A stretch of DNA of 64,000 nucleotides, taken from the NCBI GenBank assembly GCA_973895155.1, contig OZ316892.1, positions 26,497,233-26,561,232 of the forward strand. The letters are read 5' to 3'. This document shows, piece by piece, positions 8,128 to 56,388 of the stretch; the stretch's first letter is position 1; every line of letters starts with the position of its first letter. This stretch comes from Marsupella aquatica (taxonomy: Eukaryota; Plantae; Marchantiophyta). Both the position numbers and the translations under genes were made by a program. The notes under the pieces were generated by a model. It ran no database searches. It was not told the DNA's origin and saw only the letters and a program-made list of their open reading frames with translations.

Positions 8128-8382
8128 CATATATAATCGATTGTGTGCCCTTCCCCGAAATCTGCTTCATAGACTCCAATTGCTTCAAAGTCCCGGCCCA
8201 TAGTTCTGCCGTTCACTCTCGAGTCCTGTACTACGATTTACACCTTTCCCAAGAAATGTGGAATCACTCTTCATTTGGCGCTTGTACTCTTCTCGTTAAG
8301 AGCTGTGCGGATCGAGAGGGTTCAATTTTGGATCGAGCTTTTCTGTAGCTGTTACTCGATCTACCTAGATCCGATACCAGCC

Positions 8383-17916: not shown

Positions 17917-18392
17917 TGTGATCCTTCTCAATAGAGCGAACATAACAATTTTACACACATCAATTGACTGAGACTACACATTGAGAATAGATGGTGTACA
18001 GATTGTCCTCTTTATTTTCCCCATATTCTCCGTGAAGAGAATCGAACAGAAAGCTTAAGAAATGAACTCAGATCAATACCGCAGAGGGAGGGAGAGATGA
18101 ACCTTAATACCTCACATCCCCGCGGATAAACGAGACAATTCAAATACAGAGAATTGAACGTGAACTCCTTACAACGGAAAGCAGAGAACTCTTAAAACAC
18201 TGACACGTGGTGAGTTCAACGACTTACACCCGCGGCAGTTTACATGAGTAAAGTAAAACCGGAAACTCTTAAGAAATGACACGAGGAGTGCAGACAATCA
18301 CCTGCAACATTTTACATGAGAAATAAGTAACCGAAGAAACTCTAACGACAGATAGCAGTCGATCAGAAGAGAAGACAGATCATCCTGTCACA
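17917..18392 (-). repeat. Copia 3' LTR
   Basis: Direct repeat of 22779-23254 with about 7 substitutions counted by eye. Confidence 0.95.
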
Positions 18393-18426
18393 GACCCCCC
18401 CCCCCGATCGCTGCTAGCAAACATGA

Positions 18427-22687: not shown

Positions 22688-22767
22688 CCCTAGACAACTC
22701 TTTCAAACAAAAATGTGAACTAGAATGTAAAGATGTGTGAGCTTTAGAACAAGCAAACTTGTTTAAA

Positions 22768-22778
22768 GGCCCATAACC
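22768..22778 (-). promoter_or_regulatory. Primer binding site GGTTATGGGCC (half-tRNA-iMet type)
   Basis: Directly abuts the 5' LTR on the minus strand; same type as Drosophila copia/Ty5 PBS. Confidence 0.8.
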
Positions 22779-23254
22779 TGCGATCGTTCTCAATAGAGCG
22801 AACATAACAATTTTACACACATCAATTGACTGAGACTACACATCGAGAATAGATGGTGTACAGATTGTCCTCTTTATTTTCCCCGTATTCTCCGTGAAGA
22901 GAATCGAACAGAAAGCTTAAGAAATGAACTCAGATCAATACCGCAGAGGGAGGGAGAGATGAACCTTAATACCTCACATCCCCGCGGATAAACGAGACAA
23001 TTCAAATACAGAGAATTGAACATGAACTCCTTACAACGGAAAGCAGAGAACTCTTAAAACACTGACACGTGGTGAGTTCAACGACTTACACCCGCGGCAG
23101 TTTACATGAGTAAAGTAAAACCGGAAACTCTTAAGAAATGACACGAGGAGTGCAGACAATCACCTGCGGCATTTTACATGAGAAATAAGTAACCGAAGAA
23201 ACTCTAACGACAGATAGCAGTCGATCAGAAGAGAAGACAGATCATCCTGTCACA
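22779..23254 (-). repeat. Copia 5' LTR
   Basis: Direct repeat of 17917-18392, followed by TSD AATTT. Confidence 0.95.
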
Positions 23255-29605: not shown

Positions 29606-31703
29606 CTAGAAAGGAGTGTTCCTGCCCCTCCTTGCCTTCTTCCCCTTGGCCTTCTCCTTGCCCTTGTGTGCTCTTGGGGGGGGTGCAACCTGGACTTCCT
29701 CCTCCTCTTGGTCACCCTCGGGGTCACCCTCATCCTCATCCTCATCCTCATCCCCACCTCCACCGCCCTGGCTTGCCGCGCTACCACCCCCAGCACCACT
29801 GGAACGTGCTGATGCAAATGACTGGTCTCCAGTGCTAGTTGGTCTGGCTTGAGTAACAGGAGCTGTGCTCCCCTCCCCTGTCCCCTCCACATCCTCATCA
29901 CTACTATCGGTGCCACCCTCGGTATGGGAGTCACCATCCTCCCCTCCCTGCTTCCATTAGCAAACCAGGGTGTCTGTTAGTCTCATATTATTTACAAGTG
30001 TGAACAAAAGAGATATTCATTCAAAATTGCAATGAATGTAATAACCTAAAAATTCTCACCAATAATTCATCAACTTGCTGAAAGAGATGCTCCTTCCCAT
30101 GTTTCTGGCCCACCTCCATCTCAACCGCCGTAATCTTCCTCTTGTACCTCTTGTACTAAGCCAAAACAAAACCAGCACAATTGGGTTAACACCAACCCAT
30201 AACCCGATTCACATGGCTTCTAAAAATTAGGGGGTTTGTTGGGGCTGGTGGGGTGGTGCATCAAGGTTTTGGGGTTATGGAGGGTGGCATATATGGGGAA
30301 GACCCTCAAAGAACACTTAAACGATCGGAAAATTTAAAAATTCAAATTTTTGAAATTTTGCGAAGGCGCCAGCTTCGCAATCATAAGGACAATTACGTTT
30401 GCGAAGCTGGTTGCGATGCGAACGTCTTCGCAACGCCTTCACAAACGTAAGCAAAAAAAGGGCATAATAAGGTTTGCGAAGGATTTGCGAAGCTACCCGC
30501 ATCGCAAATGTATCGCAAACTCTGTCATGGCAAAAACCCGAGAGGGAAGCAACTGTACGTGACCTAATCTGACACAACAAGTCTAATTGTAACTACTTGG
30601 TGGAAATGCAAGAAAGAGTTGGCTCATTGCAGGTGTGTTGGAATAGGAATTGGAGTAGCAAGAAGTCAAGGGAGGAGAGGGAGGTGCACTCACGAATGCT
30701 GCTTTGAGGCCGGGGAGGCCACCTTGACCCAGCCTGTGGGTGATGTTGGGCTTGTCTCGGACTCGCTCAGCTACCTTCAGGAACTTGTTGGGTGGATCGC
30801 CTACTTCTGCTACAACCTGCTGGAGCTGGGCTACCTTCTGCTCCATCACCTTCAGGTCCCGGTCAGACTTCCCGGCCTCCTTTGCCCTTCGAGCCTTTGC
30901 CAGCTTCTCTGTGAAATCATTGAGGAGCCTGGCTGCTTTCAACTTCACCTCTGTCTGGTAGAAGGCCTGCCAGATATCTTCTGAGAATTGCAGCGGCCTC
31001 TGCAAATTCCTATACTCCTCCAAATCTCTAAGGTGAGACCTGATCTTCATTCTATCATGGTATCTAGCTTGTGACATGGAGTTTGAAATTTTGTCAGCAA
31101 GCCACTGTGAATCCATCTCTCCTCCATTTTGAAATGCATCTTTCACCTGATTGATGACTCGCTTCTGCTCTGCCTTTGAGCGAGTGCCCCACTCGACTCC
31201 TCTTGCAAAATTTGTGGATACAATGTGCCTGATTGTGCTCTTGGCCCCATTGTAAGCAAGCTCGGTGGGAATCCCCTCATCCTCTAAAGTAATCAGAGGC
31301 AGCTTCCTCCTTGCTGCCTCCTTCTTTCTTTGCTCCTCCCTCTGTTTCCTGATCAGGTCTCTCTCATCTTTCCTCCTCTTCTTTTCCAATGCTTGAGGCG
31401 AGAGCACTCCAGCCTGAGCTCTCTCGTCCCTCTTTTGCTTCCTCTCAGCAGCCGCCTGCTCTGCTGCCTTCCTTGCATCCTCCTCCACTGCTGCTTGCCC
31501 TGCAGTGAGACCTGCTTGCAAGGCTTGGCCCAGAAGGGCACTCAATGATGCCAGCCCTGCTGGACTGGTGAAATCAATTTGACTCAACTGTGCAACCGAA
31601 AAATGCTCATCCACAATCGCCTTCAATCGATCCCCCCCCCTCGGTTGCCTCCGCTGCTGCCAGAAGCTCCTCCATCACCACCAGTCCCCTCTTCGCTCGC
31701 CAT
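29606..31703 (-). CDS. TnpA-like second CACTA gene; exons 31703-30694, 30155-30060, 29947-29606; frameshift in G9 run at 31632-31640
   Basis: GT-AG phase-0 introns join the ORFs. Coiled-coil/basic region, HRLGQGG motif reminiscent of Ptta/En-Spm proteins, acidic tail. ATG at 31703 is in frame if the G run is 10 or 7 long. Confidence 0.6.
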
Positions 31704-33553: not shown

Positions 33554-34753
33554 ATGCCCTACATGCAATGTAATGTGGCAGTGGATATGTCCTCTTCCTC
33601 TGAACTATCCAGTAGTGAGTACTCCTCCGATGACGATATACCCCCTCCTCCTCAGCCCGAGGTTACTGGTCCTCGTGGTCCACCCCGAAGACTTTGTGAC
33701 TGCACCAGATGTGTGGGCCAAATTTCTCAAAAATCTTATGTGTGTGCTCAACATATTGAGAGATATGGACGTCATAGAGGTCTTACTCCCGGGGCTTCTT
33801 CATCCCATATGGTAAGTTTGTTTCAATTGATTGCCGTTCTTTACTGTTATTTTTAGAGGTGAATCAATGTTTACACATATGGTTTACACATTTGGTTGTT
33901 TGTGGGTGTTTGCATGGAATAGGGATCCAGTATGCGTAGATTGGTGACACCACCACCCTATGTCCCATCACAAGGAGTTTTAGATGCTATAGGCAATGCA
34001 CTTTCACAAGCCTTGGGTTTGGGAATTAGTACCAGTCATGGGACAGAAGGGGAACACCCTCATGTGCCCACTGAGACACGAAGACCCCGGTCCAGGCCCC
34101 AATCCAACAGGAGGCCACGAGCACCCAATGACCCATCCAGAACACTAGTTCAGGGTAGGTGGGGTGTTTGTTCATTCACTGGCAAGTGTGCCTCTATCAT
34201 CAAGGATTGGGAACCTATCACTCTTGGCTTGCCTTATTTTACAGATTTTGATGAGGAGATTGTGGTTTGGGGTAGACGTTGGATTGTGAAAACTTCCACA
34301 CTTGGAGAGAGACATGGATATGGAGTATTTGCTTGTGAGGATATCATCATGGATGAGGAGGGTGGGTCAAGTGTTCGTGGTAGAGAGGGTCCTACTTTGT
34401 TCCCATACGGTGGACCCATCTACAAGAGAAGACATTGGAACATGATCCTTGCACAACATCCTGAGTGGAAAACATATGCTCTAGAGATGGATACTTTTGA
34501 TGGTAGCACTAGAAGGCATAGTGAGAAGCGGGTGATAGATGGTGATCCCATACGTAATGGGAATATTGTTGGTTTCATAAATAGTACTGTGGGGACTCGG
34601 CCCAAGCGTAGGGCCAATTGTGAGTGGGTTTTTACTGATGGTCCAATGCCGGCACCATATGGCACGACATATCATAAGGACCATTGCTTAGTTCTTGCTA
34701 CTAGGACCATTAGAGGAGGAGATGAGTTATTCACACACTATGAGTGGGATTAG
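33554..34753 (+). CDS. CACTA-encoded SET-domain protein; exons 33554-33811 and 33923-34753 (~362 aa)
   Basis: SET motifs: HGYGVFACEDI, PYGG, YAL, IDG...GNIVGFINS, ANCEW, LATRTIRGGDELFTHY. ORF uninterrupted; phase-0 donor ATG|gtaagt and acceptor aatag|GGA. Confidence 0.8.
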
Positions 34754-37700
34754 GAAATCATGTCCTTTATCCTCTTGCACCTATTTTGGACTTCCCATTT
34801 ACTATTATATATATGGCCTTTGGGCTCATTTTGGAGTAATAAGGTTTTAGCCCATGCATTTACTTTAATTCTTAATGTCTTGAATGAATGGTGTTAAGTC
34901 TATTTTAATTTGTTGTACTTGGTCAAATATACATGAGGAGGTTTTTTGGTTGTAATGTGCATAGAATGTGCAACCATCTCAACAAATGTTACCACGAAGG
35001 TTGAGAGCAACATATCGGGAGATGGGTATGTCAGAAGAGGGAGAACCATCAGAGGGTGATTCCTCATCAAGTAATGATGTAGGTGGTGCTGATGAGGAAG
35101 CCGCACCTCGGACTGATGACCAGGTCATGCATGATCAAGATAGAGCCATGGATGACTTCATGGTTGATTGGTTTGGTGCCGATGTTGAGGATGATGTGCC
35201 TCACATTGGTCATGAGGTTGGCCCTTCAAATGACCCACGGCCACAACATACTCCAGAGGGACAACAACAATGGAAAGAGGCAGAGGAACATGCTCGAACA
35301 CCTATTTTTGAGGGTGCTCGGTTGAGCCGTCTTTCTGCCATATTGGGGCTCTTGAACATTCAAGCCAAACACAAGACAAGCAATTCTATGTTATCAGACA
35401 TATTTGAATATTGTCATGACTTGATGTTACCCTCGGAGAATGTGTTGCCAGGGACCTGGAAGGATGCAAAGAAGGTTCTCTCATCCATTGGTATGGATTA
35501 CCATATTATTCATGCCTGTGTGAATGATTGCATGTTATTTCACGGGGATACAGCCCATATCACAGAATGCACAGTGTGTCATGAGCCACGGTATGAGCCA
35601 AACATGCTAACCCAGAAGGTACCAAGGAAAGCAGTTCGTTGGTTCCCCATAATTCCTCGCTTGTTGCACATGTATAGATGTTCTGACTTGGCCGAGTTGA
35701 TGGTATGGCACAAGAAACATCGTTCGGAGCCCGGTGTCATGCGATTACCAGTTGACTCTCCTGCTCATAAACATGTGGAATCAACATGGCCAGATTTTGA
35801 GCGTGACCCTCGGCATGTGCGACTGGGGTTGGCATCAGATGGAGTTAGCCCTCATTCACTTGGAGGGAAGGGGAGACCTACATCGGTCTGGCCTATGGTT
35901 CTCATGAATTACAACCTTCCACCATGGTTGTCCATGAAAAAGGGTTTTTTGTTGCTATCTTTGATTATCCCAGGGCCAAAGAAGGTGAAGAACATGGACA
36001 CCTATTTGACATTACTGGTTCAGGAACTCCAGAAATTATGGGAAGGAGTATGGGCATATGATGGTCGAAAGACTACAGGGGGTACCCCACGGGTTTTCAA
36101 ACTCAAAGGGGTTTGTATGTGGACCATGCATGACTACCCAGGTAAGAACTTTGTTGTTTAAATGCATCATATTCTAATGCATGGTATCCCCTCATTTCCA
36201 TGTGCTAATCCTAGCATAATGTGTGTTTATATGACCAGGATTTGGCTTTGTGAGTGGGTTGCAAACCCAAGGCTACAAGGCTTGCTCCACTTGTGGCCCA
36301 AGCCTTGGTGATGTAGCCAAGTATTCATCACATCTTCGCAAGATTGTTTATCTTGGGCATACAAAGTTTCTTCCAATGGAACATCAGATGAGGCGTGACC
36401 CACTACTATTTTCCTCTATTGATATGCCCTTTGGTGACGAGCGTGATGTACCTGAGCCAACAACTTTTACACACTGGAAAGACATGGCTGCAAGAGTGGC
36501 AGACCCAGAGGATCCCATGCAATTTGACGGTAGTGGCTTGACAAGGTGGAGTATATTAACCACTTTGCCCTATTGGGGTGAGTTGAAGATCCGCCATCTA
36601 TTAGACCCCATGCACATTGAGGGAAATGTGGGAAAGGCTTTGATAAAGGCTTTCTATGGAGAGAAAGACACTAACTTCAGGGAGGCTTGTGAGGATCTTG
36701 AGATGCATCCAGACGTGTGGGTCATAAGTGATCCTATCACAGGGATCGAGCATCGACCTTCAGCTCCATGGGTGCTTCCTATTGGCCAGAGAAGGGAGTT
36801 TCAGAATCGCATAGGAGACATGCGGTTTCCTACTGGTTATGGTGCCAATCTCCGAAAGGCCTTTGGGATGGAGGACAATCATAAGTGGCCAAGGTATCTC
36901 AAGACACATGACTACCATAGGTTATTGCAGCACATATTGCCTGTGGCCATAATAGGTTTGGCAAGTGAAGAAGTGCAAGATGCCCTTTGGTCATTGAGAA
37001 AATTATTGAGATGGGTATGCTCTAAGGAGATATATACTGATGAGATCCCTGGGATGGAGGTTTTGGCAGCAGAGGTGGTATGCAAGTTGGAGAAGGCCCT
37101 TCCTCCTTCCTTTTTTGACTGTCAAGTGCATTTACTTGTTCATCTTGTTCATGAGGTGGCCATTGCAGGTCCTGTGCATTGTCGGTGGATGTATTGGCTA
37201 GAATGATACATGGCAGTGTTAAAAGGTTATGTACGTAACCGTGCACAGGTTGAGGGAAGCATGGCTACAGGATACTTAGCAGCTGAGAGTATGTTCTATT
37301 GTAGTAACATATTGGCCACAATTGATTGTACCTCTCCCCGTACTTGGGTAGAGGAGAGGGAAGATGAAGAGGATCGTTTAACAGGTGCTAGGAAAACTCG
37401 CATGTTGACACCAGTGGAGGTGAAACAACTGACCACATTCGTGTTGAGTAACAGCACTATCATGGAAGAATGGAGGGATTTCTATGAGGATGCCAAAAGT
37501 AACAGCACAAGACCAAGGATTTTTCCAAAGTACCTTGACTATATGAAGGAGAAGTTAGTTGAGGTGGATGACATGGTGGTCAGGGGAGAGAGTGTATTAC
37601 ATTTTCCGGCTATCACAGATGATGTTCGTACCATTGTTCATGGTCCCTTGAGAGTGGTTACAACAAGGACAGCAATGTGGACACAAGGAAGACATTTCAG

Positions 37701-38358
37701 GTGATCTCCATCTACCTTAGTAACCTTTGATTTGAATCACTTGGTTTAATTTAATTCATTTGTAATACAAGCACGTATATTGAAGAGGCAGATTCTTGGT
37801 GTGTTCAATTAATTGGAATATGTTTGTGTCTATTTTTGTGTAACATATCCTTATGGTTTGATGGATTTTAGGATTTCTTCCCTTGATGAGAAGAGGGGTC
37901 GTACCTTTGATTGTGGAGTTCAAGGACAATTCTCTCAAGATTCCCGCAGTAGTCGCCATGACACAAATATTATTCGAGATGTTGTGCCACATTATGGAAA
38001 GGTAGAAGAGATTCTAGTGATATCTTATGATGCACAATCAAAGTTTGAAGAGTATGTCTTCAAGTGCAAGTGGTTCAAAGTGAACCTTGCAGGTAACAAT
38101 CCTACTGTGGTTCAAGATGAGTGTGGATTTACACAACTGAAGACGTCTGCCACTAGTTTCCAGCCATCTCATTGGCAAACATCAGAGCCGTTCACTTTTC
38201 CAAGTCATGTGGAACAATGTTTCTATATTCCATACCCCCCAAACCCAGAGGAATGGTCACTTGTCATCACATATGTGCCACGGTCTCGTTCAATCGTTGG
38301 GGAAAAGCCTGATATTCTGGTTGTGTCCCAACCTGAAGATGATGAGGACCAAGTTTGA
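33554..38358 (+). pseudogene. CACTA TnpD transposase; exons 33554-33811, 34965-36141, 36239-37700, 37872-38358; one premature TGA at 37204-37206
   Basis: IHACVNDC, RHVRLGLASDG, WPMVLMNYNLPP, TMHDYPG, LDPMHIEGNV, LKTHDYH, PPSFFD..VHLLVHL, GPVHCRWMY, FKCKWF. All splice phases are consistent. Confidence 0.9.
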
Positions 38359-40176
38359 GGGGTCTGTGTTTGTGGATATATAGCTACACGGATATATAGT
38401 TAGATTTGATGATATGAAGATTTCTCTTCTCGGTAGAATGGAGAAATATGTGCTTCTCAATTATCAATAAACTTATGTTTTGTAAGTATATCATTTTCAA
38501 ATGTTGTTTTCTATATCTCCCATCCCTACCCCACACTCACCACACCTTTTGGTAGACTTTATGCAAAGAAAACTCATGTTGCTTGTAGTCCTCTATCCTC
38601 CATGCTTTCCTAATCCCCCCTAGCTGTTCTCCTTATTACTTGTACCCACCTCCCTCCTCCTTTCTTTCATTGTCTGTCCGTCTTATCAAACCCTCCTTCC
38701 TCCTTCCTCTCCTTGTCCCAACCCCTGGCTTTCTATTTCAACCCTATACTTTCCTTACTTTCCACCCCTGTCCCCCACTCTTACCTATACAACCTAGCTT
38801 CTCTCCTCCCTCCTAAACCTATACCCTTAAACCTCCCTCATTTCCTTGTCCCTCTCTAAACCAATACCCTCCCTCCTTTCCTTGTCCCTCTCTAAACCCT
38901 AAACTCCCTCCTTTTTATTTTCACTCCCTAAATCCAAACCCTCCCTAAAACTATATCTACATACCCTTCCTCCTCCCTCATTTCCTTGTGCCCCCTAAAC
39001 CTGTATCCTCCCTCTTGGATCCCTCCGTTCCTTGTCCCTCCTAGCCCCATTCCCTTCCTCCTCCTTTTCATTGTCCCTCCCTAAAAATTACATGTATCCA
39101 CCCTCCTTTACCCTCCCTCCCCAATCCCATTCCTTTTCCACCTCTTTGAAGCGCTCATAATATTTTGCGAAACATCTTGCGAAACCCCTACACCCGCAAA
39201 CTCATCGCTACATTTGCGATACTTAACTGCTCCCTAATTGCCATCATCCCCTCATCGCAAACTTCCGAAGATACCACCATCTCAAAGTTGCGAAACCAAA
39301 ACATTCACAAAATGAGACCCTAGACAGGCACAGGATTTGCGAGCCTATTACTATCGCAAGTTAGCCATATATTCCACAAACATCGCTCATTTGCGAGACA
39401 ATAAGACTCGCAAAATATTTTGAGATGCTTAAATATTCGCAACCATTTAGTTTTCCGGCGCATCTCAATGAATTTGCGAAGCGGTAAAGATCGCTAACTT
39501 GTTCAATGGTAATTGCTTCGGAAATGTTTTGCGATACCTGAAGTGTCGTAAAATGTTGCGATGGTCTAAGTTTCGCAATTATGTGTTGCGATGTGTGTAG
39601 ATTCGCTAAGTGCGATGCGTATCGTATCGCAAGTTTAGCGATGAGATTAATCTTGCAAAGCTTTCTTCCTCTTGTAAAACGCCTTCGCAAAATTGGCAAA
39701 TATGTAGTATTGTCCCTATCTCTCAACTAGCTTCGTAACAATGAGCCTAAGTTTCACCAGGGTCTAGCATCAGTCCTAGCTATATGTACAACAACACTAT
39801 CGCTAACATTAGCTAAATTTTAACCCGAGTTAGATTAATTGTGGTTAGCTCATGAGTCACAAAACTAGAGCAATATCTAACAAATCACAGACGAAATAAG
39901 AAGGAGACAAAGTTTCAGGATTTTTCGAGTGAGTGGACTTTTTGGCAACGCCATCTCTGATCTGAAGAAAACCGACGGAAATTGACGCAAGAAAGTTTGC
40001 AATGGAGACTCTTTGACAACCCGAAGTCTGTATGTCAGGAGCAGCTGGTCATGCTTGTTGACTTAGGAGCAACTGGTCATGGTTCTTGACTTTGGAGTGT
40101 ACGCCACGCCTAGCTTTCTATTCACTTACCCTAACTCTATAATTACGGTAGTACTAGCACGGAAGTGGAATGTGGC

Positions 40177-40462
40177 AGTGTATTTTTTAAGGTTTTTTAC
40201 TTTTAGCCAGTGTGGCGAATGTTTGCTTCTATGAGGGAGGAGTTGCTAAGAATATTCTTTGACAAATTTTATTAAATTAAATTGTGACCGTCAGATATCC
40301 CTAGATTTAAGGAGAGCCGTTAGATTCTGGCTAATGGGGTCAATGATTTGGTGAAAGAGTGGCTAATGGTGTCAGAAAAATGTAACGAATCTTAGCCAAA
40401 AGTGGCGAAAGTTTTTTGGGAGGTGGAATTTGGCTAAAATTCGCACTTAAAAAATACGCTGG
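40177..40462. mobile_element. MITE-like repeat family (related pieces at ~45203-45450 and ~54850-55065)
   Basis: cagtgtattttttaag...cttaaaaaatacgctg inverted ends; shared ttttttaaggtttttt..tagccagtgt, gctaagaa and cagatatccctagattta motifs. Confidence 0.55.
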
Positions 40463-41725: not shown

Positions 41726-42825
41726 CTATAACAATGTCGGTGCTCCTTTCGCGTCGGTACTAATCGCCAATACCTGACCACCAACGATGATGGATCCATT
41801 AATCGGTGCGAGCAATCCTCCTGCGGTAGTCACGTAAAGAGTGTTCTGGTCCCATTTCCCCCTCCCAAACGCGGCAGAAGTTGGCTCCGCAATCAGGGTC
41901 GAGATCACGTCTCCGGCAATGATTTGCTGAAGGCTTCCGTCGGGCGAGACCCTCAGTATCGAGTTGCCGCTTCCTGTGACCAGATACGCATTCCCAACAT
42001 TGTCGAAATTGAAGTCGTCGAATTGCCATGTAGCGTTGGCCAGGATGACTCCGTTTCCATTTGGTTTGCCGTCCTTTTTTATCGGCTGCCTAACGAAGAT
42101 TTTCTTGCCTACATTGGCAAAGTAGACGGAGTCACCTCGGACACGGACGCCGTCGACACCGAAGGGTGGAACTCGTGGAATTCCTAAAGGAGCCGAAGCT
42201 GTGAGGGCATTGGCGATCACTAGCTGTACCTTTCCGGTATCGACATTGAGCCGAAAAATTTGGCCACCAACAAAGTCACTGAGGAGGATGGTGCCCTCGT
42301 CTCGGGACAGCAGCGACATCCCGTTCAACGTGACGTTTTGCACGTCGGTGATCTTGGAGACTAATGGAGCAGGGCTTAGAGTTCCGTCTGCCTGCTGCTG
42401 GACGTTGCGCATGTCGACTTTCCACACGGCCCATGTGCTCGGGGCGAAATTGAGAGCTGCGAGGGTGAAGTTTCCGTCATGACGGCGAAAATGTCCGGCT
42501 TGTACTCGGCTATGCCCGTCAAGCTTTCGTACCCGTCGAAGCTGTGTACGAGTGTCGGCTGCCCAGTCTGGTTGGAGTTCAATAGAAGAAGAGTGGGAGA
42601 GGTGACAAGCGTGACCAGGATCTGACCATTCGAGCGAACAGCTAGGTTCTCGACGAATGTGCCGACGGGGAATTGATAGACAGTGCGCACCGGAAAAGGA
42701 AGGGAATCGGAGCCCGAATCATAGTTGCCTTGCGCTACACCTGAACTGACAAGGGATAGAACGATTGCAGCTAGTGTGAGTGAAATGGTGTTGAGCCTCG
42801 GCGAAATTAGACCGGCTACGGCCAT
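41726..42825 (-). pseudogene. Beta-propeller paralog with 1-bp frameshift near 42475
   Basis: ORFs 42825-42376 and 42427-41726 together align to 8383-9483. Confidence 0.8.
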
Positions 42826-42972
42826 GACTAGTATCGGGTCGAGGTAGATGGAGGAAAAGTTACAGAAACGTCAATCGAAATTGATTCCTCTCGATCCTCA
42901 CAGCTCGAAACGAGAAGGGAAAAGTACAAAAAGCAGTAGAGGAGTCGAGAGTGAACCGGCAGAACTAATATA

Positions 42973-43714: not shown

Positions 43715-45574
43715 ATATAAGGGCCGTGACTCTAAAGCAATTGGAGTCTATGAGGAAGCGCACACGATCGGCTATATATATCAACCTTGGCGCCGGGGAA
43801 TCAGACCATCAAAGCAGGGGTGCGTTCTGTCCAAAATACGATGGGGATCGAAGGACTGATTTGCCGGTTGCATTTCGATGCACGTTCAGGAGTCAGCATT
43901 TGTACAGGAAATGGTAATGTGTTCATTATGTTATAGCGCATTCCGATGAGGATCTCAAGACTGGCATCGCTGGTTATTTGGAAAAAGTAAATAGTCTTGG
44001 TGGATTGCTGGAGCTGTCTGAGCGTTTCGTTGTTTCGCTGTTTCTGTCAGCTTTCTACCATCCGCACATGCTTCGATCAATTTATTTGACTAATTGGCGG
44101 CGTTGTCGCGTTCCTTTTGGGAGGCCTGGCAGGTTCAAACATTCTGCATTGCATTTACTCGACACTCGAACTTTCTTCCGAGACCAAAATTAAACGAAGG
44201 AGAGGACATGCCACTGTGATTCCTTTTTCATTGATCCGTCTTCCTCGGCTGACTTGTTGCCAAAATTTCCCACTCACGACAGGCTTTAGATTTAAGCTAC
44301 CGGACAAATGGTATCGACAAGGATGCCCCAACTTGATCTTAGTGTGCCCCCTCGCCCCTAGCTCGGGCTCCCACTGGAAACTAGCGACCTAGCGTGGATC
44401 TTGCTGACATAAATATGTTCGCGAGTCTCATATCACAATATCACAGCTCTCCACAGACTTATCATAATGTCAACGTGTATTATATTAGGGTCAAACGCCA
44501 TCGAATCCTTGGCCTTGCCTTCGCCTTCATATTCGGGGATTTCATTGTCATTCGAAGCTGACTCTTTCGTTCGATCTTTTCTTGATTCCCTCGCGCTTTC
44601 CCTTAATTTACTAAAGGCTCGAATACCAAACTTCCAGGACATGCCACTATCATTAATAGGGTCGCGGTGACTGCACATAAAAAATCGAGAATAGGATAAG
44701 CAGAAAGAATACCATTCTGAATCAGGATTACAAATATCAATTCGGTTAAGTCCGTTCGACCACTGGGGCACTTGCCAAGTAGCGAAGTTCACGATAGCGG
44801 TGCTTTTTGACGTGCAGTTACTGCTTGGCTTATAAATAGCGATGACCACGTTTTGGTCTGTTTGCAAGAGCGTCTGCAACGTCGCCGTAGCTTTTCAGGA
44901 AGGTTCCTGACGGACTTGCCTGAAAGTTGTGCAAGTGCAGCAAAATCTGCCTAGACAAAGCTTCGCGCTTCAGCAAAGGGATCAATCGAGGGATCAATCG
45001 GATGATAACAACCAATAGTAGAGCTAAATTTGACGAGTCAACGTTCTGGACATAGTACTTGCTAGATGACAGCAAGTAGAGTTCTCTGCTTCGACAGAAA
45101 CGTGATCAGACAGACAATTTGTTACCCGAGTGCATGAGTGGAGCATTCTTTCATCTAATTTTAGAGTTGTGCCCGTCAAATTCTCCAGCTAGGCTTGAGC
45201 CCAGCTTATTTTTTAAGGTTTTTTTTGTTTCTAGCCAGTGTCCGCAACTCTAGGGCAGGAGACCACTCTAGGGAGTAGATGCTAAGAACATTATTTATTT
45301 TTTATAGACGAGATGCTTTATGAGAGTAACTCTAGGGAGTAAATGCTAAGAACATTCTTTATTTTTAATGGACGAGATGCTAAGAATCTTCTTTCAGATT
45401 TTTTAGGGTTAGATATCCTAGGTCTGTCAGATATCCCTAGATTTAGGGAAGTTCATCAAACCAGATTTAGGGAAGTTCCCCGGTTTGATGTGTCGGGCAA
45501 CTTGCCGAGTTGCCCGGCACGTAAACTCGTCATTGGCCGGCCTGAATTGTCCTCATTTGACGCATATTTGCTGT

Positions 45575-45935
45575 TATTCCCCGGCCTGGCCCGAACTTCT
45601 CCCTGGCCTGGCCCGAACTTCTCCCCGGCCCGGCCCAAACTCTTCCCGGCCTCTTCCCGGACTCGGCCCAGCCCCTCCCCTACCTCTCGTCACCCGGACC
45701 CGGCCCCAGCATTATGGCTCGGCCCCGGCTTTACATCCCGGCCCGGCTCGGGTGAGGAGGAGGCCCGGCCTGGGAGGAGGGAGGCCCGCGTGGAGGAGGG
45801 AGGGAGGCCCGGGTGGAGGGAGGAGGGAGGAGAAGGGCCCGGCCCGGGTGGAGGGAGGCCCGGGTGGAGGGAGGCCCGGCCCGGGGGCAGGGCGGCCTGG
45901 GAGGAGGGAGGAGGGAGGACCGGCCCGGGTTAAGG
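45575..45935. repeat. GC-rich GGCCCGG/GGAGG low-complexity block, C-rich half then G-rich half
   Basis: Many ggcccgg units; pyrimidine-rich half followed by a roughly complementary purine-rich half. Confidence 0.7.
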
Positions 45936-46613
45936 GAGGATAAGCCTGGGTTTTAAAGTTGTGGATAAACCCGATTGGGGTAAGCAATATCTGCTAATTT
46001 GGGGTGGTGTAGATTTCTCGCTTATCTAGTATGTCGACCCCACTAAATATAGAACGTGTCTCCATTCTAAATTGTATAAAACCATGAGTTTTTTTCATTA
46101 GACACACTTCACCAAAAGTAGAGCATTCTATGTAAGGAGGGATAGAGAAGACTTTTGTGCGCACGTGCTTGGAGGTTTTACTCGGCATGTGGTAATCCGC
46201 ATAATAATTTTCTTGCTATCCCTTAACAATTTAGTGGTACTTGTGGGTATTGTGAAATAAATTTTGACAATGTTGACATTTATGTACGCATGTTTGGAGC
46301 TAAAGCTTGACGTGTGATATTTTGCATGATTGTCACTAATTGTCTCATATGTTTTCACTATATTGGCAAATGCTCATTAAATTATAGATATCACATACGT
46401 CGGATAGGAATGTTAACAACCAAAAAACAAAAGAGAACCGCTGTGCGCATGTTTGGAGTTTCACTCGGCGTGTGATATTTCATAGTAGTTTTTTTTCTCG
46501 TTTTATTGTTGTTACTTCAAAAGAATAACAAATAATCATTCAAATTTTATTAAGAGACTATGTTTAGCGACGTATAAGAAGACACTGTGTGTGTAAAGTT
46601 CTTATTTTTGATC

Positions 46614-49299
46614 ATGTCATCCAAAGAAGATGAGTCGGGCAACTCATCAGCTCATTCTACTCTTGTTAGACACGATGGAAATCACAATCAAGATTGTAGT
46701 GCAAAATTCTCCCCAGTGTGGAATTATTTTGAACGATGTGATACACCATCAGCGTGTAATGATATTAATCGTATAAATCAAAGATGCAAATCTTGCAAGA
46801 AATATAAAATGCATCATGCAACACGAGCAAAAGCACATTTGATGGGAAACATACACAAAGGAGATGCGCCACCTTGCACAGGCTTGTATGAAGTTGTTGA
46901 CTTAGAAACATCAATAGAATGTACAATGTCATAAAGGTTGACCCATCCATAAAGTACAAACAAAGTGATGGAAGTCATATTATGTTATCCATGAGAGGTC
47001 GTAGGTCATATAACCCATCTTCCAATTTGCAAGCATCAACTCGAGACTCAAATTTTGTTGACCTCAATGAGGATGGAAATATGAGTCATCAAAGTAGAGC
47101 ATCAAACTATGCAAACCCAATCATGGATGCTTATCAAATTCCAAATAGAGCTCTTTTGGATAAGCTGTGGGCTAAAGTTTTTTATTCGAGTGGTATTCCG
47201 TTCAACGTGTCAGAGAATCCTTTCTTCCGTGAAGCAGTCACAAAAACCTCAAAAGGGATTGTAAATGGATATTCTCTTCCGGATATGCAAAATTTGCGAA
47301 TAAAATTATTGGAGGAGGCTAGAGTTGATCTTACAAAGGACATGACAAAAACAATGAAGGAGGCAAAACCCTTTGGATATTCTCTTTCATCCGATCGATG
47401 GAAAAATATCCGAAGGGAACCTTTGATGAATGTCATGTTGTTGAGTTCAAAAGGAGACTTCTTTTTGGATAGTTGAAACGCTGCACAAGCAGACAAGAAA
47501 GATGAAAAGTATCTTGGTGACATGCTCGGGGGTCTCACTATATGGGGACCTCCCCACCGCCTGCGACGGTTTTAGGGCTCGGACACCCTAAAATGTAAGA
47601 AAAAAAATTTATAATCCCCTATAAAGTTGGAATATTCTTGGAATATTCTAAAAATTGGATTTAAAAAGACCTAATGTTCTTATAAGTCTCAAAATTGAAT
47701 TTAAAAGACCCTATTGTTCTTCTACAAAAATTCTTAAGTCTTCCCTTAGAACCAATAAAATGACCCTATCCTTCGTCGCACGTGATATGCCATTTTTGTG
47801 GAAGTGAAACCCCCGAGGTGACATGTGGTTAAAATACATAGATGACATTGGCGCCGATCACATCATACAAATTGTTACCGATGGGGCGCCTGCAAATTGT
47901 GTAGCAGGTGAAGAGATAGTGATGAAAAAATATTTGCATGTGACGTGGAGTTGGTGTGCTGCCCACGTGTTTAATTTGTTACTAGAAGACATGTGTGGCC
48001 ACAAGAATGTAGAGCTAGATGAGTGGAAAAAAATCCATTCAAAGTGATTTTTAAGCACTTGAGATGGATAGTTAAAGCAGTTACATCATCACAAAAATTG
48101 TCTACAATATTTGTGAGGAAATCTAAAGTTGTTAAATCCAAATGCAACGAGATTTGCAACAATTTTTTTAATGGCGCAGAGAGCATTGGAGCTAAGAGGA
48201 GCTTTACAACAAATGGTCATTGATGATAAGTGGCAATCCTATCGTGATCGGCTGCTAGTTCGACCAAAGTTACAGGGGCATATGATGAGGGTAAAGGCAG
48301 ACGAACTTAAATCGTGGATACAGCAAGATACATTTTGGGCTCAAATAAAATCTACAGTCGCTTTTTTTTGCCGTTGGTGAAGATGTTGCAAGAATTTGAT
48401 GGAGTTTTACCACAGTCTCCTTGGCTATATTGGAGCTTGAAAAAAGGAATAGCTAAACTGGAGGCGAGTATGGAGAGGTGTACATTAGTAACGGATTACT
48501 TAAAACCAAAGATAATGAAAGTGTATATGGATCGACAAAAATCACTCACTACTAATTTTATGTTAGCAGCAGCATATCTGAAGCCTCAATTTTTCTTCGA
48601 TGAAGATGAAGATATGACAGGAGATGCAGAACTGTATAGAGGCTTCAATGATTACGTTCGTAGATATGAAGAACACAAGGTGAAGGCAGGAATCAACCAT
48701 GATCGAGATGTGACAATACTTATTTTTGACATCCAAATGCAGATATTTGAGGCTCAAAAAAAACTGTCAAATTCATCGGTTGCAATGAGAGGAGCACAAT
48801 CCAATATTGGGAAATTAAATCCTAGAGAGTGGTGGCATTTGTATGGAGCTGATTACGCGGAGCTAAGATTGATGGCCAGAAGAATCACGCATCAACAAAT
48901 GTGTGCATCTTCATGCGAACAAAATTGGAGTTCGTACGACTTTATCCATTCAAAAACCGTAACAGGTTGACCAATGATCGAGCAAAGGATTTGGTTTTTG
49001 TATTCACAAATTCGAGGGTGCAAAAAGGGCTCACGAAGGTGAGAAACCCTCATACATCTATGTACAGACAATATGATGAAAGAACAGCAACAAATGATGG
49101 GCCGAGACCTACTTCCATAGAAGGATGTCACACTAAAGAACATGGTGTTACGTGTGCGACTCTTGGAGAAGATGACGTGGAGGATTTTGATATAATTGAT
49201 GACGCAGATGAGATTTTGCAAGGATTATCATTACACAATGATAATGACATGTTGACTCGTATTCCACCAGATACTGAAATAAGTGATGCCGGAGAATAG
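46614..49299 (+). pseudogene. hAT-superfamily transposase (BED-like finger, DUF659-type core, dimerisation domain), disrupted
   Basis: VWNYFE..RCKSC..HL, GIPFNV..NPFF, SSDRWKN, QIVTDGA, WCAAHVFNLLLED, NATRFAT, WWHLYG, SSCEQNWS. Frameshifts, stops and a MITE insertion. Confidence 0.88.
47525..47817. mobile_element. 293-bp MITE inserted in the hAT transposase
   Basis: TIR CTCGGGGGT(C/T)TCACT, 14/15 match; 8-bp TSD GTGACATG; removing it restores YLGDMWLKY. Confidence 0.9.
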
Positions 49300-49869
49300 G
49301 AAGATGAAATGGATTTAATGATGTTCCCCACAATCGATGACAGAGTCTCAAATTCAGGATGACGAGGACTACTCATTCGATACAAACTTCGTCTACCCAA
49401 CATTCGTCCTTCACCTACCCAACATTGAATCTACAAAATGATGTCCAAGCAAGTACTTCATACTTATTTGAACGACAAGGTGCTGCGTCAAAGCTTTGTC
49501 CGGAGAGAACAACACCAACTTTGTTTGCGCAACCTGATGATGCACAATGGGGACAACATGCTTCTCCAACACTCAATATGTATGAAAGGCACAACATGAC
49601 AAATCCATACACATCAAGCATACATGCCCGTGTTGGCGCATTTCAAGAATATCATAGCGCAGATCTAGTCCAATGGATGACAAGATAATTTCAATTTGAT
49701 CGACAATTGCAAGAAAATGAAAACAATAACACAAGGCAGTTTTTGTCACAACCTTGACCTTGGTTTAGGTATTACATACTAGTACTATACGACAAACTAT
49801 GATATACTACGTCGGATTGTGCATGTCCTATGCAATAAAATATGCTATACTAAACATTGTGTTTGCAAT

Positions 49870-51795
49870 CTAGTCATTTTGGTTCTCATTGTCTTGCGCT
49901 TCTGCTTTCACCTCTGCCAGTTGCTGACGACGATGATGGCAATGAATCGATCGCTGCATGTTTTGCTCATCTATTGTTGGTCGATTGGCCATTGCATATT
50001 CCTTCCACTCTTGGAATCTACCGCTGAATAACAAATTATCAAATTCACCATCTGACAAGTTGTATTCATTGACTGTGAAGTTGTCAATGGGCCTTGAATC
50101 GATCTGTGCCATTGCAATACTCTCTTGAGTCATTTCTTCAGTGTCTTGCTATGTCTTCATTGGTGGCATTTGTTTTAACAAACCTCGTTGCTCATACTCT
50201 CGTTGATGAAATGGTTTTTGACACCAACATTTCTGGCTCTTCTTCATCCACCGAAACAAGCAAGCATGATGCCATAAGTGACCGCATGTTCCCAAAATGA
50301 AAACAAATTTGGGACCCCATGGATACAAGCACCAAGTACATCTTCCATCCTTTTCTCAAACAAATTGGGCCATACTTTCATCACTCTTTCACTTGTCAAA
50401 AAATTCCTCAACATCTTCTGGATCCTGCTCCACATCCAGAAAAAGATGAGATTCTCCCGTAGGATCAATCATTTGCAAGTTCATATAATTGTAGTTCATG
50501 CATCTTGATTTTTCCTTCTCTAACTGACCATCCACCTGAGCAATGTTCATTTGCTCAATCTTCTCTTGCAGATTGCTTATGATCACCTCTTGTGATGCAA
50601 CCTGATTCTTCAAATCCTGAATGACTCTATCTACCTCTTGAACTTGTTTCATTTGACTACCTTGACCATCCTTTTCGGCAAGTTGTTTGTTGAGCTTTGC
50701 GATCTCCTCCATCTTGTCGTACAGTTGCATCTTGTATTCCTTCACCTCTAAAGTAGTCGCACTTTGAATGGGCATTTTTTCCATTGCTTTCATCTTCAAA
50801 AGATTATCTTACAACTTTGACTTATAGTAGTCAATGCTGCCAGCTTCACAAAGGTCAAGACAAAACTTTTTGCAAAGATTATTCTCGATCAAATGACCAA
50901 TCTCTGTGCCCAAACTCTTGCACACAATCTTCATGCTCAATGATTTTTTCTTTGGATCCAAAACACCAGTGAACTTTCTTGGTAAATTGTTACTTGTAGA
51001 TGCTGCAATGTTTGATGTTTTGTCCACCTATTTTGATGCGCTAAAACTTTTGGATTTAGTGAAAAGTTGTTCCAGTGCAGTCGACTTATCTTTCTGATGT
51101 GCATGAATATCTTGCGTATCATGTATCTTTCTCTTTGATCATTTGTTGGTTGTTTGACTCGACATATCTTTTATAATATTTTTGTTGCTCTTCAAACCTG
51201 CAATGTGCAGGACAGACTGATGCACAGAGTGAGTCATCTTGCCCTTTTCTGTTTCCCAATGGTAATCCACCTTCCACTTCAGAATGAATTCAGCTATTAG
51301 GAGTCGGAGAATAGGAGGATAAACCGAGCTTGTTTTGCCTTGCGCCTTCTTTGGAGCATACTCTCAAAATCTTTGCTGCCAATGCTTGCCAATTTCCACA
51401 TGTGTTACCTTGAACATTGTGTACTTCTCTTGCATCCAAGACCTTGTGGCCCATAAATTTTCATCATCAAAAATGATTTTCATCCATTTTTGGAACTCCA
51501 CACATGGCATCAATATCTCCAATTCTTTGGCGTTGATGGGCCATTCATTGTGAGGAGGTTTCACATTTGGCATTGTGATATTCCATTCAACATCCTTGGT
51601 GTCCTCATCCATTTTGGTTATGCTTTGCCTTGCATGATTGCTACTCATTCCAATGTCCTCATCTATGGGTTGAGAATCTTCTTCAGCGTATTGATCCTGA
51701 GACCAAAGGTGTAAATCCTGAGCAGGTTGCAAATATAAATATGGAATCTTTCTAGGTTTTTCCTCCTCGTCGGATTCCAAATCCCATTTTCCCAT
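49870..51795 (-). pseudogene. Degenerate cargo gene of unknown function with coiled-coil region
   Basis: Chain of same-strand ORFs (MGKWDLESDEE..., YKMQLYDKMEEIAKLNKQL..., MTQESIAMAQ...) broken by stops and frameshifts. Confidence 0.5.
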
Positions 51796-51980
51796 CCTTG
51801 CAGATTCTACAATAACAAAAACATTTTTAGCATTCATTCGCCATACACTCTTCAAGATAAAAATGATAATAAAATACAATGAAGAAAAATAAGTAATACA
51901 TTTAATTCATATGACATTATTAAAATAGATAATAGTTCATGTCATCTATCATTGTCATTCATGATGAAACTATGTCATCC

Positions 51981-53601
51981 CTAATCTCTTAGATAAGGAC
52001 TATTGTGCTGAACTAATCTACAATCTTGGAATGTCCTCATCATTCTCAAACTCCAATGAACACAATCCATTCTTTTCTTCACATCAGTGGCCATCATGTC
52101 ACGTATCATAATCTCTAATTTAGGGCCATGCTCTCTAGCATTCCAACCCCTATTCAGATATAGTGTCATTGGGGTCATTCCATCCCAATTTTCTGTGAGT
52201 AATGTCTCAAAGATATTGCCCAAAGCATATATGTCAGTTGCTTGACTGTACTCTGCTGGATCGGAACGAACGAGCTCAGGCGCCAATTGTGGATATTGTT
52301 TTTGATACGCAACTACTTTCTCTGTAGGGGTGGGTCACATTCAATTTTGTGGTAATATGCATTGTAACTTGTGTTTGGACAACCCAAAATCACATATTCC
52401 TACATAAATTCTAATTGCCAAATCATCCTCGTGATCAAAATGAAGAAGGATGTTCCCAAAATGAAAATCACAATGGAAACGGTTGTGTGCATGCAAATAT
52501 TGCAAGGTCTCCAATAGAGCCATAGCAATTCCCAAATGATGTTCCAAAAAGAGTTTTTTTTTCAGATATGAATACCACATCAACCTCAGAAGTGGATTGT
52601 GTCTTCCCTTTGCTCTTACTCCATTTGTCACACTTATCTATGAAACTTCCCAAGTCACCTCCATTGTAATGGTCATAGATAAGTTTCAGGGGATCTTTGA
52701 TAGTCATTGCCAAGGCCCCAATAATTCCTTTGTGATTCAAACCTTCCATGAGCATTTCTTGTAAGGCATCTGTTTGTCTTTTGTGCCAGTCTCCATCCTT
52801 AAATCGTTTTGCAACCAGTGTTGCATTTTGAGGAATCAATGGGCAATCCAATATATGATATATGAACACATCCTTGGAATCAAGAAATGAATACTCCTGA
52901 CTATGGGAACAACTCGTGATGGACGGAATCCTTCTATCTGCAACCTCCACGCCAATCTCTCCAAACTGCACGACCTTGCTCGCATAGTTGACATTACTCT
53001 TCGATTTGGCCATTGCTAACTCTTTGCTCCATTTAGCTAGCAAATCTCTTCTATGTGTCACGTATAGCCCAGGAATTCCAAGCATGACGGCCCCAACCTC
53101 ATCCAAATTGGATTCCAACTTGTCCCAAAGATTTACCGCAAAGTTCAACGCCAAATGTTCAACAAATCCATCCGGCTTCTCAAAATCACTTATTAAGGCA
53201 GCAATTTTATCTCGGGTCATGTCCTCTTCTTTCTCCACAGTCTTACGCATGCAACGTCCCATGTCATTTAAAAGGTTTTTGTAACCCTCTGCTCCATGCA
53301 TAGCATACTTCCTCTCAAAGCCATCCTGCTCATACTGTGTTGGCAAAGTGTAGGGATATAGAATCTTTTTCCAAATTGCAACTAACACATGTTGTCTTCT
53401 CTCTTTCAATGCAATACCAATTGCTCCTCCTCTATGTTTCTATTTCCCTAAGGTTTTGCCATGTTTACAAATTTCTAAGGTTTTGTGAGCATTCCTTAGA
53501 CCATTGAGGGCATGAGGATTTGGTTGGTATCCCTTGTTTAGCATGGTCTTCATTGCCTCAAAAAGTTTCATATACTCTACACTCACATGTGCAGCAGCCA
53601 T
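51981..53601 (-). pseudogene. Intronless protein kinase (non-RD, HCD) with N-terminal helical extension, disrupted
   Basis: VAKRF, alphaC EMLME, YNGGDL, HCDFHFGNILL, DFGLSK, APEL, DIYALG. In-frame stops at 53440, 52341 and 52335; frameshift at the T run near 52555. Confidence 0.82.
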
Positions 53602-56388
53602 GTTCTCAAGTAACCACAACAACTTGTAGGACAAAGAATAGGCGCTTACGGAGTGTGTTGGCTGCTTGCCGAGAGTATGGATGATGCAAGTACAATAAAG
53701 CTGGATCAAGAATCCTGAAATGTCATTGCACACTTTGTGTTGGTACCAATAATACCCAAGCAATGAAATTTTAATTTTTGTTTAATTTTTTATTCGTTTG
53801 TTTAGTATTTTGAAAGTAACAACGATGAAGGGGAAAGACAACTATGTGAAATACCACATGCCAAGTCAAAACTCCAAGCATGCGCACAAAAGATGTCTTT
53901 TCCTTCAAGTTGTTACATTCCTATTTCAATCTATGTGAAACCTATAGTTTATATATCATTTGTAAATGTTGTGGAAATATTTACAAGGAATCCAGATATC
54001 CATGCAGAGTACCACATGCCGAGCAGAAACTCCAAGCATGCGTACATGAAAATCTCTATCCTAGAAAATACTCCACTCAATTCACAAATCACACTAAACT
54101 GTTAAGGCGATACTAGGTTCTCTCATACAAAATACCACATGCCGAGCATAAGCTCCAAGCATGCGCATACGTGAGAACACTAATATCCCTCCAAATTAAA
54201 ACTAAATGTTAAAGTCATACATGGCAAAGCATAGCCAAAAACAATTCAAAACAATTCAAAAACTAGTGAACTAAACTCAAAACTAAGCAAAACATAAGCA
54301 AAAGCAAGAAAAGCTTACCAAAGGCCTCTCCTACAAAACAAGCAAACTTAGTAATGAGAAGTTAGTAATGAGAAAAAGTGAGGAGACCTCCCCACTTTGT
54401 AGTCCCGGTCCCGCTCTGCCCCCCCCCCACCTTGCAAGCTGACCCCGGGTAGCCGAGCCCGATCCCCCCCTGGCGGCAGCCCTCCTCTCGCGCGACCTAA
54501 CCCTAAAGCCCCCATATATCTTTAAACTAATCAGCTTTCCATGCCCTCCATATACTGGTGGACTGATTGAACACTAGTTGAGGGAGAGAGACCCCCATGC
54601 CATTCAATGCAGTTGAACGAAATTTCAACTAAGGGAGGGTGTGACAGAAATTCTAGCCTCTTAGAATGAGGGGGAAGCTTTTCAGCAGCTACGGAATGCC
54701 TTCTCATGACAATCGATTCGAAAATACTTGTACCCTTGAAACAGATAAAATACACTTTGCGAGAGGCCAGGGCACTTTTTTGGTCAAACTCTGCGAACGA
54801 GCTTCATTCAGGCACGGGCAGCAAACTCCTCAAATAATTCTCTAATTCCACCCCATTAGAAAATACTAGCCACAATTGGATAAAATTAGCCAGGTTTTTT
54901 ACCCCAGAGCCAGTTTTCCACCTCGCCACACCCCATTAGCCAGAATACAATCTGACCATCATCCTTAAATCTAATGAGATCTATGGGAGGTAAAATTTCA
55001 TAAAGAATTTTCTTAGCATCTGCTACTTCGCACCAGGTGACATTGGGCACTGTGGCTAAAACGAAAAACCTTTAACCCTACACTGTCGCAGATCCAATTG
55101 ATGGTCGTCAGAGAGCCGCCATTGCAAACTTTCTTGCATCAATTTCCGTTGGTTTTCTTCGGATCAGAGGTGGCGTTGCCAACAGTCCACTCGCTCGGAG
55201 TGATGGCCGATGGAGCGGTTATTCCATTCCTTCATTAGCTTTTCTCAGTGGAAAGTTCCAACTAGTTAGAAAGCAGTGGTGATCGAAACCAAATTGTTCT
55301 TGCAGTCCAGTGATTGCAAAAACAATGTCCCAGAGCTTCAAGAGCAATACCATAGTGCAGGAACCAGATTGATTTAAGAATTCACCGCTTCCCAGTGTTG
55401 TGTGGGCAAAAGAAGTTTGCTTTTTCCTGCCCCTGTGCATTATTATATCGTACCTGGCTAGCCACACTCTTTTCCTCTGTCTTCGAGGGCCTCTTGGAGG
55501 TACAGAAGAAACCACAGCCCCCTCGGAGAAGATTGGCCAAGTGCTGGGTGCCGGACATAATTTGATTTGATTGGACTTGCCTGGCCTCGCCTCACAGCGT
55601 AGTAAAGCCCCGGGGAAGCGGAGATCGGAGGAGTTGGTTGAGCCATTCGGTGAGTCTTTCCTTTTCTCGGTCATCAAAGGTCCAGCTGAGTTGAAAGGTG
55701 TGCATTCGAAGTGTATCTCTATCGCTTTCTTTCGAATTTCAGTTCGGACAAGTTTAGTAGGTCAAAGCTCTTCATCATAACTTAACTTCATTTGACTGCT
55801 CCCTTTGGTTGTACCATTTTGGTCTGCTGTTTTGCCGAAGATTAAGTGGGATCTTCCAGTGATTTGACTCCCAGGCTTTGGCAGGTAGATGCAAGCGAGA
55901 ATTCAATGCTCCAGCTACTTTCCTGAGGGACACAGAGCCAAAGATTGATTGTCCAATGTTCTACCAACGAATGAAAGACTCATACGGGATAGGAGTCACG
56001 GAGTAATTGATACTGGTCTTTTTGGCGTTCAGTCAGATTTTGCATGGATCGATGGCTGCATCGAGCTTTAGATTGGAGCCAAGGAGGCAGTGACAATGGA
56101 AAGGAGATGATCATATAATGACTTGGTAGATGTAAGCTCTCGACCATTTCGAAAGCAAATTTCCAGAGCAATTGTTTGTGGGCAGCTCGTTGTTTGTTCA
56201 GCCATATCAATGATTTTCATGCCTGGTGGATCCATCATCTGCTGCGTCCATCTTACCAGCCCAATTTGCTCTCGTTTTCTCTTTCCACCTTGTTAGCTAA
56301 ACCGTTGTACTTCGGATTGGACTACTTACCAACTTTTCGTGACGTCCCAAACAGTCCACTCGTAATTGGTTATACACAAACAAGTATT

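Follow-up and report, generated by a model that had tools for sequence, protein, structure and literature searches.

Elements of the hAT superfamily are textbook single-gene transposons, and to our knowledge the known accessory proteins of plant transposons act on DNA, chromatin or the transposase; in MuDR, an accessory gene faces the transposase from the opposite arm. Here we describe a repeated unit of ~9 kb in a stretch of 64,000 nucleotides from Marsupella aquatica (Marchantiophyta; assembly GCA_973895155.1, contig OZ316892.1, positions 26,497,233 to 26,561,232; this whole stretch is called the window, and coordinates refer to it). Within the unit, two inverted ~375-bp blocks frame three genes, and a hAT transposase gene on the plus strand faces a RING-H2-like gene (gene 2) and a protein kinase gene, both on the minus strand. 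This unit is a decayed member of a repetitive hAT-type family that comprises several genes, a kinase of its own among them. With a probability of roughly 0.65 we read it as a dead copy of a ~9-kb, multi-copy hAT (DUF659) transposon, in whose intact members the kinase and, for this subfamily, the RING-H2-like gene are likely to be present as accessories of their own.

According to the available portions of a survey of 1007 plant genomes (PMC12973397), Pkinase is an accessory domain in 1 of 337 active hAT clusters, 4 of 1846 clusters of Mutator-like elements (MULEs) and 2 of 775 CACTA clusters, and RING domains occur in one hAT cluster; on these counts, kinase cargo is rare, not unheard of. In the same portions, the main text makes no mention of kinases, and six short DNA words searched there gave one unrelated match. 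DUF659 is present in 115 of the 337 active hAT clusters (Table S6), and the unit resembles plant DUF659-type hATs in having a transposase with DUF659 and Dimer_Tnp_hAT domains and subterminal motifs repeated at both ends, but differs in its size of ~9 kb, its three genes, its ~375-bp internal inverted block and its CCC rather than CAG start. With MuDR/VANDAL elements, as far as the survey describes them, it shares a transposase accompanied by accessory open reading frames (ORFs), but the transposase is of hAT and not MULE type and the accessory ORFs encode a kinase and a RING protein.

The best functional analogy to the kinase-bearing unit is AACRNL, a fish Crinkler-like ADP-ribosyltransferase that has spread with hAT and mariner elements and has a reported action on EZH2 and TRAF6 (PMC12957317, in its available part). 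This is likewise a protein-modifying enzyme spread with DNA transposons, with reported effects on silencing and immunity in the host, but it belongs to another enzyme class and lies between non-autonomous or neighbouring elements, whereas the window kinase shares a unit with the transposase. The CRN/CR proteins with kinase-restriction endonuclease (REase) C-termini (PMC5289972, available part) also place a kinase in a transposon-linked gene family, but in the window family no REase or Crinkler domain was matched and the kinase domain is C-terminal, behind a helical domain. A word search of the available text of a giant-transposon review (PMC6431247) found no mention of kinase, and no description of this kinase-hAT family was found in a literature search that had Repbase, Dfam and most subscription papers outside its range.

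The repeated unit and its three genes

The sequence-only reading of this locus had proposed that a hAT transposase and the two minus-strand genes facing it moved as one unit between positions 46148 and 54170. The gene order and strands were borne out, with DUF659 and Dimer_Tnp_hAT pieces on the plus strand and kinase and gene 2 on the minus strand, as was the similar decay of the genes: lesion density is ~1 per 100 codons in transposase, gene 2 and kinase alike, which we counted in favour of a single unit. Contigs from four public sequencing runs (X1–X4; two organisms and two studies, X3 and X4 coming from another organism and study than X1 and X2, which may stem from the source of the window itself) were compared with positions 44500-55500; a depth summed over contigs does not give the copy number and is no basis for ranking the genes. 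Of seven runs available, two (X6 and X7) were left aside, and a further organism, C (run X5), was not used, its four records all being less than 90% alike and one being at depth 2. Contig depth and loose contig ends placed the repeated unit from 45479 to ~54330-54410, limits wider than those first proposed. In all four runs, 23 of 23 bins inside the unit, excluding a nested miniature inverted-repeat transposable element (MITE), were deeper than all five flank bins, with values of 99-484 inside and 32-59 in the flanks for X1, where exact single-copy flank contigs have depths of 20-29, and of 1271-23802 and 48-210 for X4. All three genes are repeated. The proposal of movement as one unit, stripped of its narrow limits, is supported by this raised depth over the three genes in four of four runs, by the sharp left end and by contigs that join parts of the unit. 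Of these, one diverged contig (X4 record 23, depth 176) joins the left block to the transposase, and another (X3 record 19, 1310 bp, ~87% identical, depth 406) joins the 3′ end of the transposase to the 3′ end of gene 2. Several lesions of the window copy, e.g., at 48026, 48361, 48951, 52553, 50358 and 51139, are absent from other copies among the best-supported cases.

The transposase reading frame retains matches to DUF659 (E 6e-8) and Dimer_Tnp_hAT (E 2e-4) and is broken by one stop, five frameshifts and the MITE insertion. An intact 801-aa homologue, P0171, aligns end to end over 46614-49287 at 59-70% identity, matches the same families at E 8e-32 and E 3e-9, and carries SDGW, TDGA, CAAH and CERNWS, that is, the DDE-type and CxxH motifs. 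The features of a hAT transposase, DUF659, the C-terminal dimerisation domain, the DDE triad and CxxH, are present, the last two in the intact homologue. The MITE is of very high copy (bin depth 53,000-386,000, more than 100 times the flanks in all four runs) and is absent from other copies, as seen from a joint 47515>47817 in three of the four runs among the best-supported cases.

Gene 2 has no introns and stays in one frame throughout, with seven stops in 655 codons. It had been described from the sequence as a coiled-coil protein, which holds for a helical, charged, coiled-coil-like middle (~50820-50500) and misses a C-terminal RING-H2-like finger at 50340-50221 (zf-RING_2 at E 5e-4, short of the curated Pfam cut-off), on account of which its product is a predicted E3 ligase. 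Its Calypogeia fissa relative CAM6090301 is 45% identical over 507 aa, in a gene model without a RING, and those homologues of the two cargo genes that bear a species name come from this liverwort, with 45-55% identity for gene 2 and for the N-terminal piece of the kinase. A 26-nt inverted match (88%) between the gene 2 coding sequence (51612-51637) and the right outer arm (54215-54240) is possibly due to chance.

The three direct and three inverted copies of a ~35-bp motif noticed earlier are real. They lie at 46160, 46285 and 46444 on the plus strand and at 54167, 54044 and 53886 on the minus strand, match at 23-29 of 29 positions, and are accompanied elsewhere in the 64 kb by one weaker site (21 of 29). 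All six sit within a single inverted block, 46158-46532 and 53797-54167, which is 70% identical over 386 nt and has a score of 270, where 200 local shuffles reached 56 at most, giving the unit the repeated subterminal motifs at both ends that are typical of hATs, in a 3 + 3 inverted arrangement. The transposase ATG follows the end of the left block at a distance of 82 bp, the kinase ATG that of the right block at ~200 bp, so that transposase and kinase are read inward from the block. The blocks are likely subterminal transposase-binding arrays and promoters. The 35-bp motif was not found in the viral contigs searched, and Rfam gave no match in the unit or in two metagenome loci (L001 and L002) described below.

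At the left end of the unit (45479), 13, 12 and 12 contigs with unrelated flanks were found in X1, X3 and X4, with a flank agreement of 0.41-0.43, and depth in X1 rises from 28.6 left of 45479 to 2934 at 45483-45519. The first ~55 bp are common to a far more abundant repeat family, which diverges at 45534-45540. At the left junction, the 16-bp sequence AGATTTAGGGAAGTTC occurs twice around ATCAAACC, the reverse complement of element-end bases 3-10, a footprint that looks like templated repair, and a single-copy X4 contig tracks the host flank to 45452 and then departs from it, as an empty site would. Contigs of other copies link 45818 to 46152. On the right, the repeated cover tails off around 54330-54410, and from 54513 onwards the sequence is again that of the host paralogue; no reverse-complement copy of the left end was found near the right end, which may be truncated in the window copy. 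Two candidates for element ends were dropped: a terminal inverted repeat (TIR) of ~1 kb through the GC-rich arms, whose similarity was not above that of local shuffles, and an inverted match of 45274-45405 with 54991-55024, which is host paralogue sequence that also occurs at 40176-40313.

The kinase family and a second locus

The kinase was described from the sequence as intronless and non-RD with HCD, DFG and APE motifs, and FHCDFHFGN, CDFG and LAPE are indeed present. That reading also raised a possible link to immunity, the basis for which is the non-RD label. The window copy is 64% identical to an intact 550-aa homologue, P0015, relative to which it has three stops, three frameshifts and a deleted glycine-rich loop. 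Word searches collected relatives in nine clusters, and a profile search of 1.84 billion representatives returned 17 matches at E 1e-30 or better before dropping to generic kinases, the best non-family matches having E 1e-22 or weaker and covering the kinase domain only. Nine family proteins are encoded on eight contigs of Calypogeia fissa, mostly fragmentary and one at full length, a transposon-like pattern, and further copies come from metagenomes. The kinase family was absent from the viral and prokaryote contigs searched.

The glycine-rich loop, beta-3 Lys, alphaC Glu, HxD, D(F/W)G and an APE-like (A/S)xE are kept in nine of nine family members that span the domain, and the catalytic loop of the family, H(C/A/V)D(L/F/M)HxxN, is of the non-RD type. 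Over the kinase domain, the proportion of nonsynonymous differences (pN) is 0.17-0.29 and that of synonymous differences (pS) 0.70-0.83; the synonymous rate (dS) is saturated, and the ratio is ~0.1-0.15 where computable. Judged by these sequence comparisons, the kinase family is under purifying selection. In a quick tree from an unfinished search, with 95 proteins that have a usable catalytic loop, the family forms one clade with a Shimodaira-Hasegawa-like approximate likelihood ratio test (SH-aLRT) value of 99. The window copy was left out of this tree and its branches are long, and we therefore claim no donor for the kinase; of the viral, fungal or CRN-type origins raised by the sequence-only reading, no such family was matched. 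Five more distant HxDLH-type kinases with other N-termini (P0043, P0049, P0050, P0044 and P0170) join the family in a loose grouping; one of them is a Riccia fluitans protein.

The closest solved structures are weak matches of tyrosine kinase-like (TKL) type, Roco4, RIPK1 and B-Raf, at E 5e-7 or weaker. The ~200-aa N-terminal domain is modelled as helical with a predicted local distance difference test (pLDDT) score of 79, and the full-length model is poor (pLDDT 51). No match to the fold of the N-terminal domain at E <=0.001 was found in the PDB or viral libraries, and on the question of an MLKL-like HeLo/4HB domain, the best fold match was an unrelated protein (Z 4.9, root-mean-square deviation 4.8 over 96 residues). 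Neither a Crinkler header nor an REase gave a Pfam match in 29 family members, and fold searches gave no clear match to them.

Two metagenome loci with the kinase were found, L001 and the very short L002. The intact kinase of L001 is 49% identical to that of the window, and its upstream 544 bp align to the right block over 360 bp with a score of 132, compared to a shuffle maximum of 50 and 36 for a control region, and contain motifs at distances of 440 and 276 bp from the kinase ATG and a partial one at the contig start. Since this match persists at 49% kinase identity, the block has stayed with the kinase over a long divergence. The L001 kinase is followed after ~340 bp by a near-intact, probably intron-containing DUF6729 gene at 2527-5822 with Cys clusters and a D...DxxH motif. 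Such a motif agrees with how Dada transposases are described (PMC3706591, available part), and a link to these is possible. The ORF had no match to P0171, the PDB, NCBIfam or further Pfam families beyond DUF6729, and no small-RNA target was found in the gene region. It may be an insertion into a hAT-kinase element or a second host element.

Coordinates and surroundings of the unit

Table 1 Features of the repeated unit and its left host flank in the window
Feature	Position	Strand	Basis or remark
Host flank with footprint resembling repair	45439..45478	+	sequence
Left terminus (CCCGGTTTGATG...)	45479..45540	+	loose contig ends at 45479
Left arm, CCCGG/CCGGG sub-repeats, C-rich then G-rich, GC 73-77%	45578..45954	.	
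Left block copy	46158..46532	+	three 35-bp motifs 454, 329 and 170 bp before transposase ATG
DUF659-type hAT transposase pseudogene	46614..49299	+	domain matches and homologue alignment
293-bp MITE, ends CTCGGGGG...CCCCCGAG, 8-bp target-site duplication (TSD) GTGACATG	47525..47817	.	sits inside transposase of present copy
Gene 2 pseudogene: N-terminal part without match, coiled-coil-like middle, RING-H2-like finger	49870..51837	-	frame, profile matches
Intronless kinase pseudogene: ~200-aa all-helical N-terminal domain, non-RD kinase domain (HCDxHxGN)	51981..53601	-	
Right block copy	53797..54167	-	motifs 566, 443 and 285 bp before kinase ATG; kept upstream of L001 kinase
Right outer arm, no left-terminus copy	54168..54512	.	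depth and sequence

Around the unit, NB-ARC-LRR (NLR) genes alternate in the 64-kb window with SMP-30-like genes, among direct and inverted repeats and Copia and CACTA elements. The N-terminus of the NLR, which looks alpha/beta-hydrolase-like, gave no Pfam match. Three SMP-30/gluconolactonase-like genes, all intronless, lie at 8173-9483, ~15700-17050 and 41726-42870, and a Copia-type retrotransposon (17917-23254) with 476-bp long terminal repeats that are 98.5% identical is inserted adjoining an SMP-30-like gene. A CACTA-type element runs from 28818, where CACTACAA is found, to ~39700, with Transposase_21, DUF4218 and DUF4216 at 34965-38358. Its span also includes a SET-domain-like ORF at 33923-34753 (+; PF00856, E 1.4e-4, at the cut-off) and an ORF at 30583-31674 (-) without assigned function, and it is possibly a second multi-gene DNA transposon, with chromatin-modifier cargo.

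Alternative explanations and a possible role for the kinase

Several results weigh against reading the unit as a copy of a hAT transposon with its own accessories. The left terminus is shared with a commoner family, so that the 12-13 flanks may include copies without the kinase, and an exhaustive scan for TIRs and TSDs around the window copy revealed nothing above chance, i.e., no right terminus, TIR pair or TSD. The start of the unit is CCC, as opposed to the CAG start of two bryophyte hAT clusters (PMC12973397, available part of Table S2). Outside the block, the similarity of the arms is not significant, as high a score being reached by 60 of 200 and by 24 of 200 shuffles, and because of this we take the block as internal and not as a terminal repeat; the motif arrays are not TIRs. 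Among the contigs listed, none bridges kinase and RING gene with at least 31 letters on each side, and in a joint between the two, 51839>51924, seen in three of the four runs, the shorter side comes to only 22-25 letters, so that their link in other copies comes from continuous raised depth and this weak joint. In the 3.6 kb downstream of the L001 kinase there is a DUF6729 gene (E 2e-11) and no RING or hAT gene, which goes part of the way towards a kinase without hAT, the condition that would speak against a stable association. Finally, the catalytic-loop Lys is replaced by His in the kinase family, whose activity is a prediction from motifs. Taken together, what had been observed from the letters is confirmed and its interpretation is partly supported, as is hAT membership, to which the transposase testifies.

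The rival that survives best, improbable in our view, holds that the shell is a MULE or other long-TIR element, that the hAT ORF is its cargo or a replacement transposase, and that kinase and motif block form a mobile module between superfamilies. The inward reading of genes from both arms, as in MuDR, would fit this, as would the place of kinase and block in L001 beside the DUF6729 gene and its D...DxxH motif. A resemblance to moss MULEs lies in the start with CCC and in the long arms rich in GC; 3 of 8 listed clusters of these MULEs start with CCC and 1 with CCT, their TIRs measuring 55-780 bp and their TSDs 9 bp (PMC12973397, available part, including Table S2). However, separate hAT ends would not fit between the left block and the hAT ATG, which are only 82 bp apart. 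A MULE transposase domain was not found in the unit, the sole transposase there matching hAT families; the nested MITE, with a similar CTCGG start, has an 8-bp TSD; and in L001 the DUF6729 gene may have inserted independently.

A Pack-type capture, in which retrocopies of two host genes, one for a kinase and one for a RING protein, were taken up by a hAT and ride along without function, would account for two intronless cargo genes and agrees with the sporadic kinase domains of active plant TIR elements (PMC12973397, available part of Table S6). We hold it to be very improbable, given that no close host-type parent appeared among the 1.84 billion representatives of the profile search, that the kinases form a clade of their own (SH-aLRT 99 in the quick tree), and that even at ~50% identity there are full-length ORFs with all motifs in place, their pN being much lower than pS. 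Equally improbable is a chance nesting of independent repeats in a transposon-rich NLR cluster, with a hAT element beside a separate kinase element, which the many nested elements and inversions of the window and the absence of a detected TSD would allow, but against which speak one inverted block framing both outer genes, raised depth with continuous cover over all genes and a diverged contig joining transposase and gene 2.

On the preferred reading of a hAT transposon with accessories of its own, the hAT transposase would cut and paste the whole ~9-kb unit, the inverted blocks would serve as transposase-binding arrays and also as inward promoters for transposase and kinase, in a MuDR-like layout, and the kinase would be kept by selection acting on the element itself. 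That the kinase helps the element is suggested because long purifying selection on dispersed, mostly broken copies is most easily explained in this way. As a first and tentative guess, somewhat short of even odds, kinase and RING protein would target host chromatin, silencing or defence proteins, the former by phosphorylating and the latter by ubiquitinating them, and so keep the element active. A second guess, which we rate as unlikely, is that the kinase directly controls the transposase, and it is rather unlikely that the kinase is of benefit to the host or has no role. A more far-reaching scenario is doubtful and quite unlikely: a bryophyte transposon lineage would have evolved its own kinase-plus-ubiquitin-ligase module, driven by arm promoters and disarming host silencing or defence, and kinase and block would have been swapped between unrelated superfamilies (hAT here, DUF6729/Dada-like in L001).

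The family has a practical consequence for liverwort annotations, where it inflates apparent kinase counts, as with the nine Calypogeia fissa proteins. Intact homologues exist in P0015, P0166, P0171 and L001. If the preferred reading is true, a full-length kinase under selection together with a predicted E3 ligase would make this a transposon that acts on its host via phosphorylation and ubiquitination.

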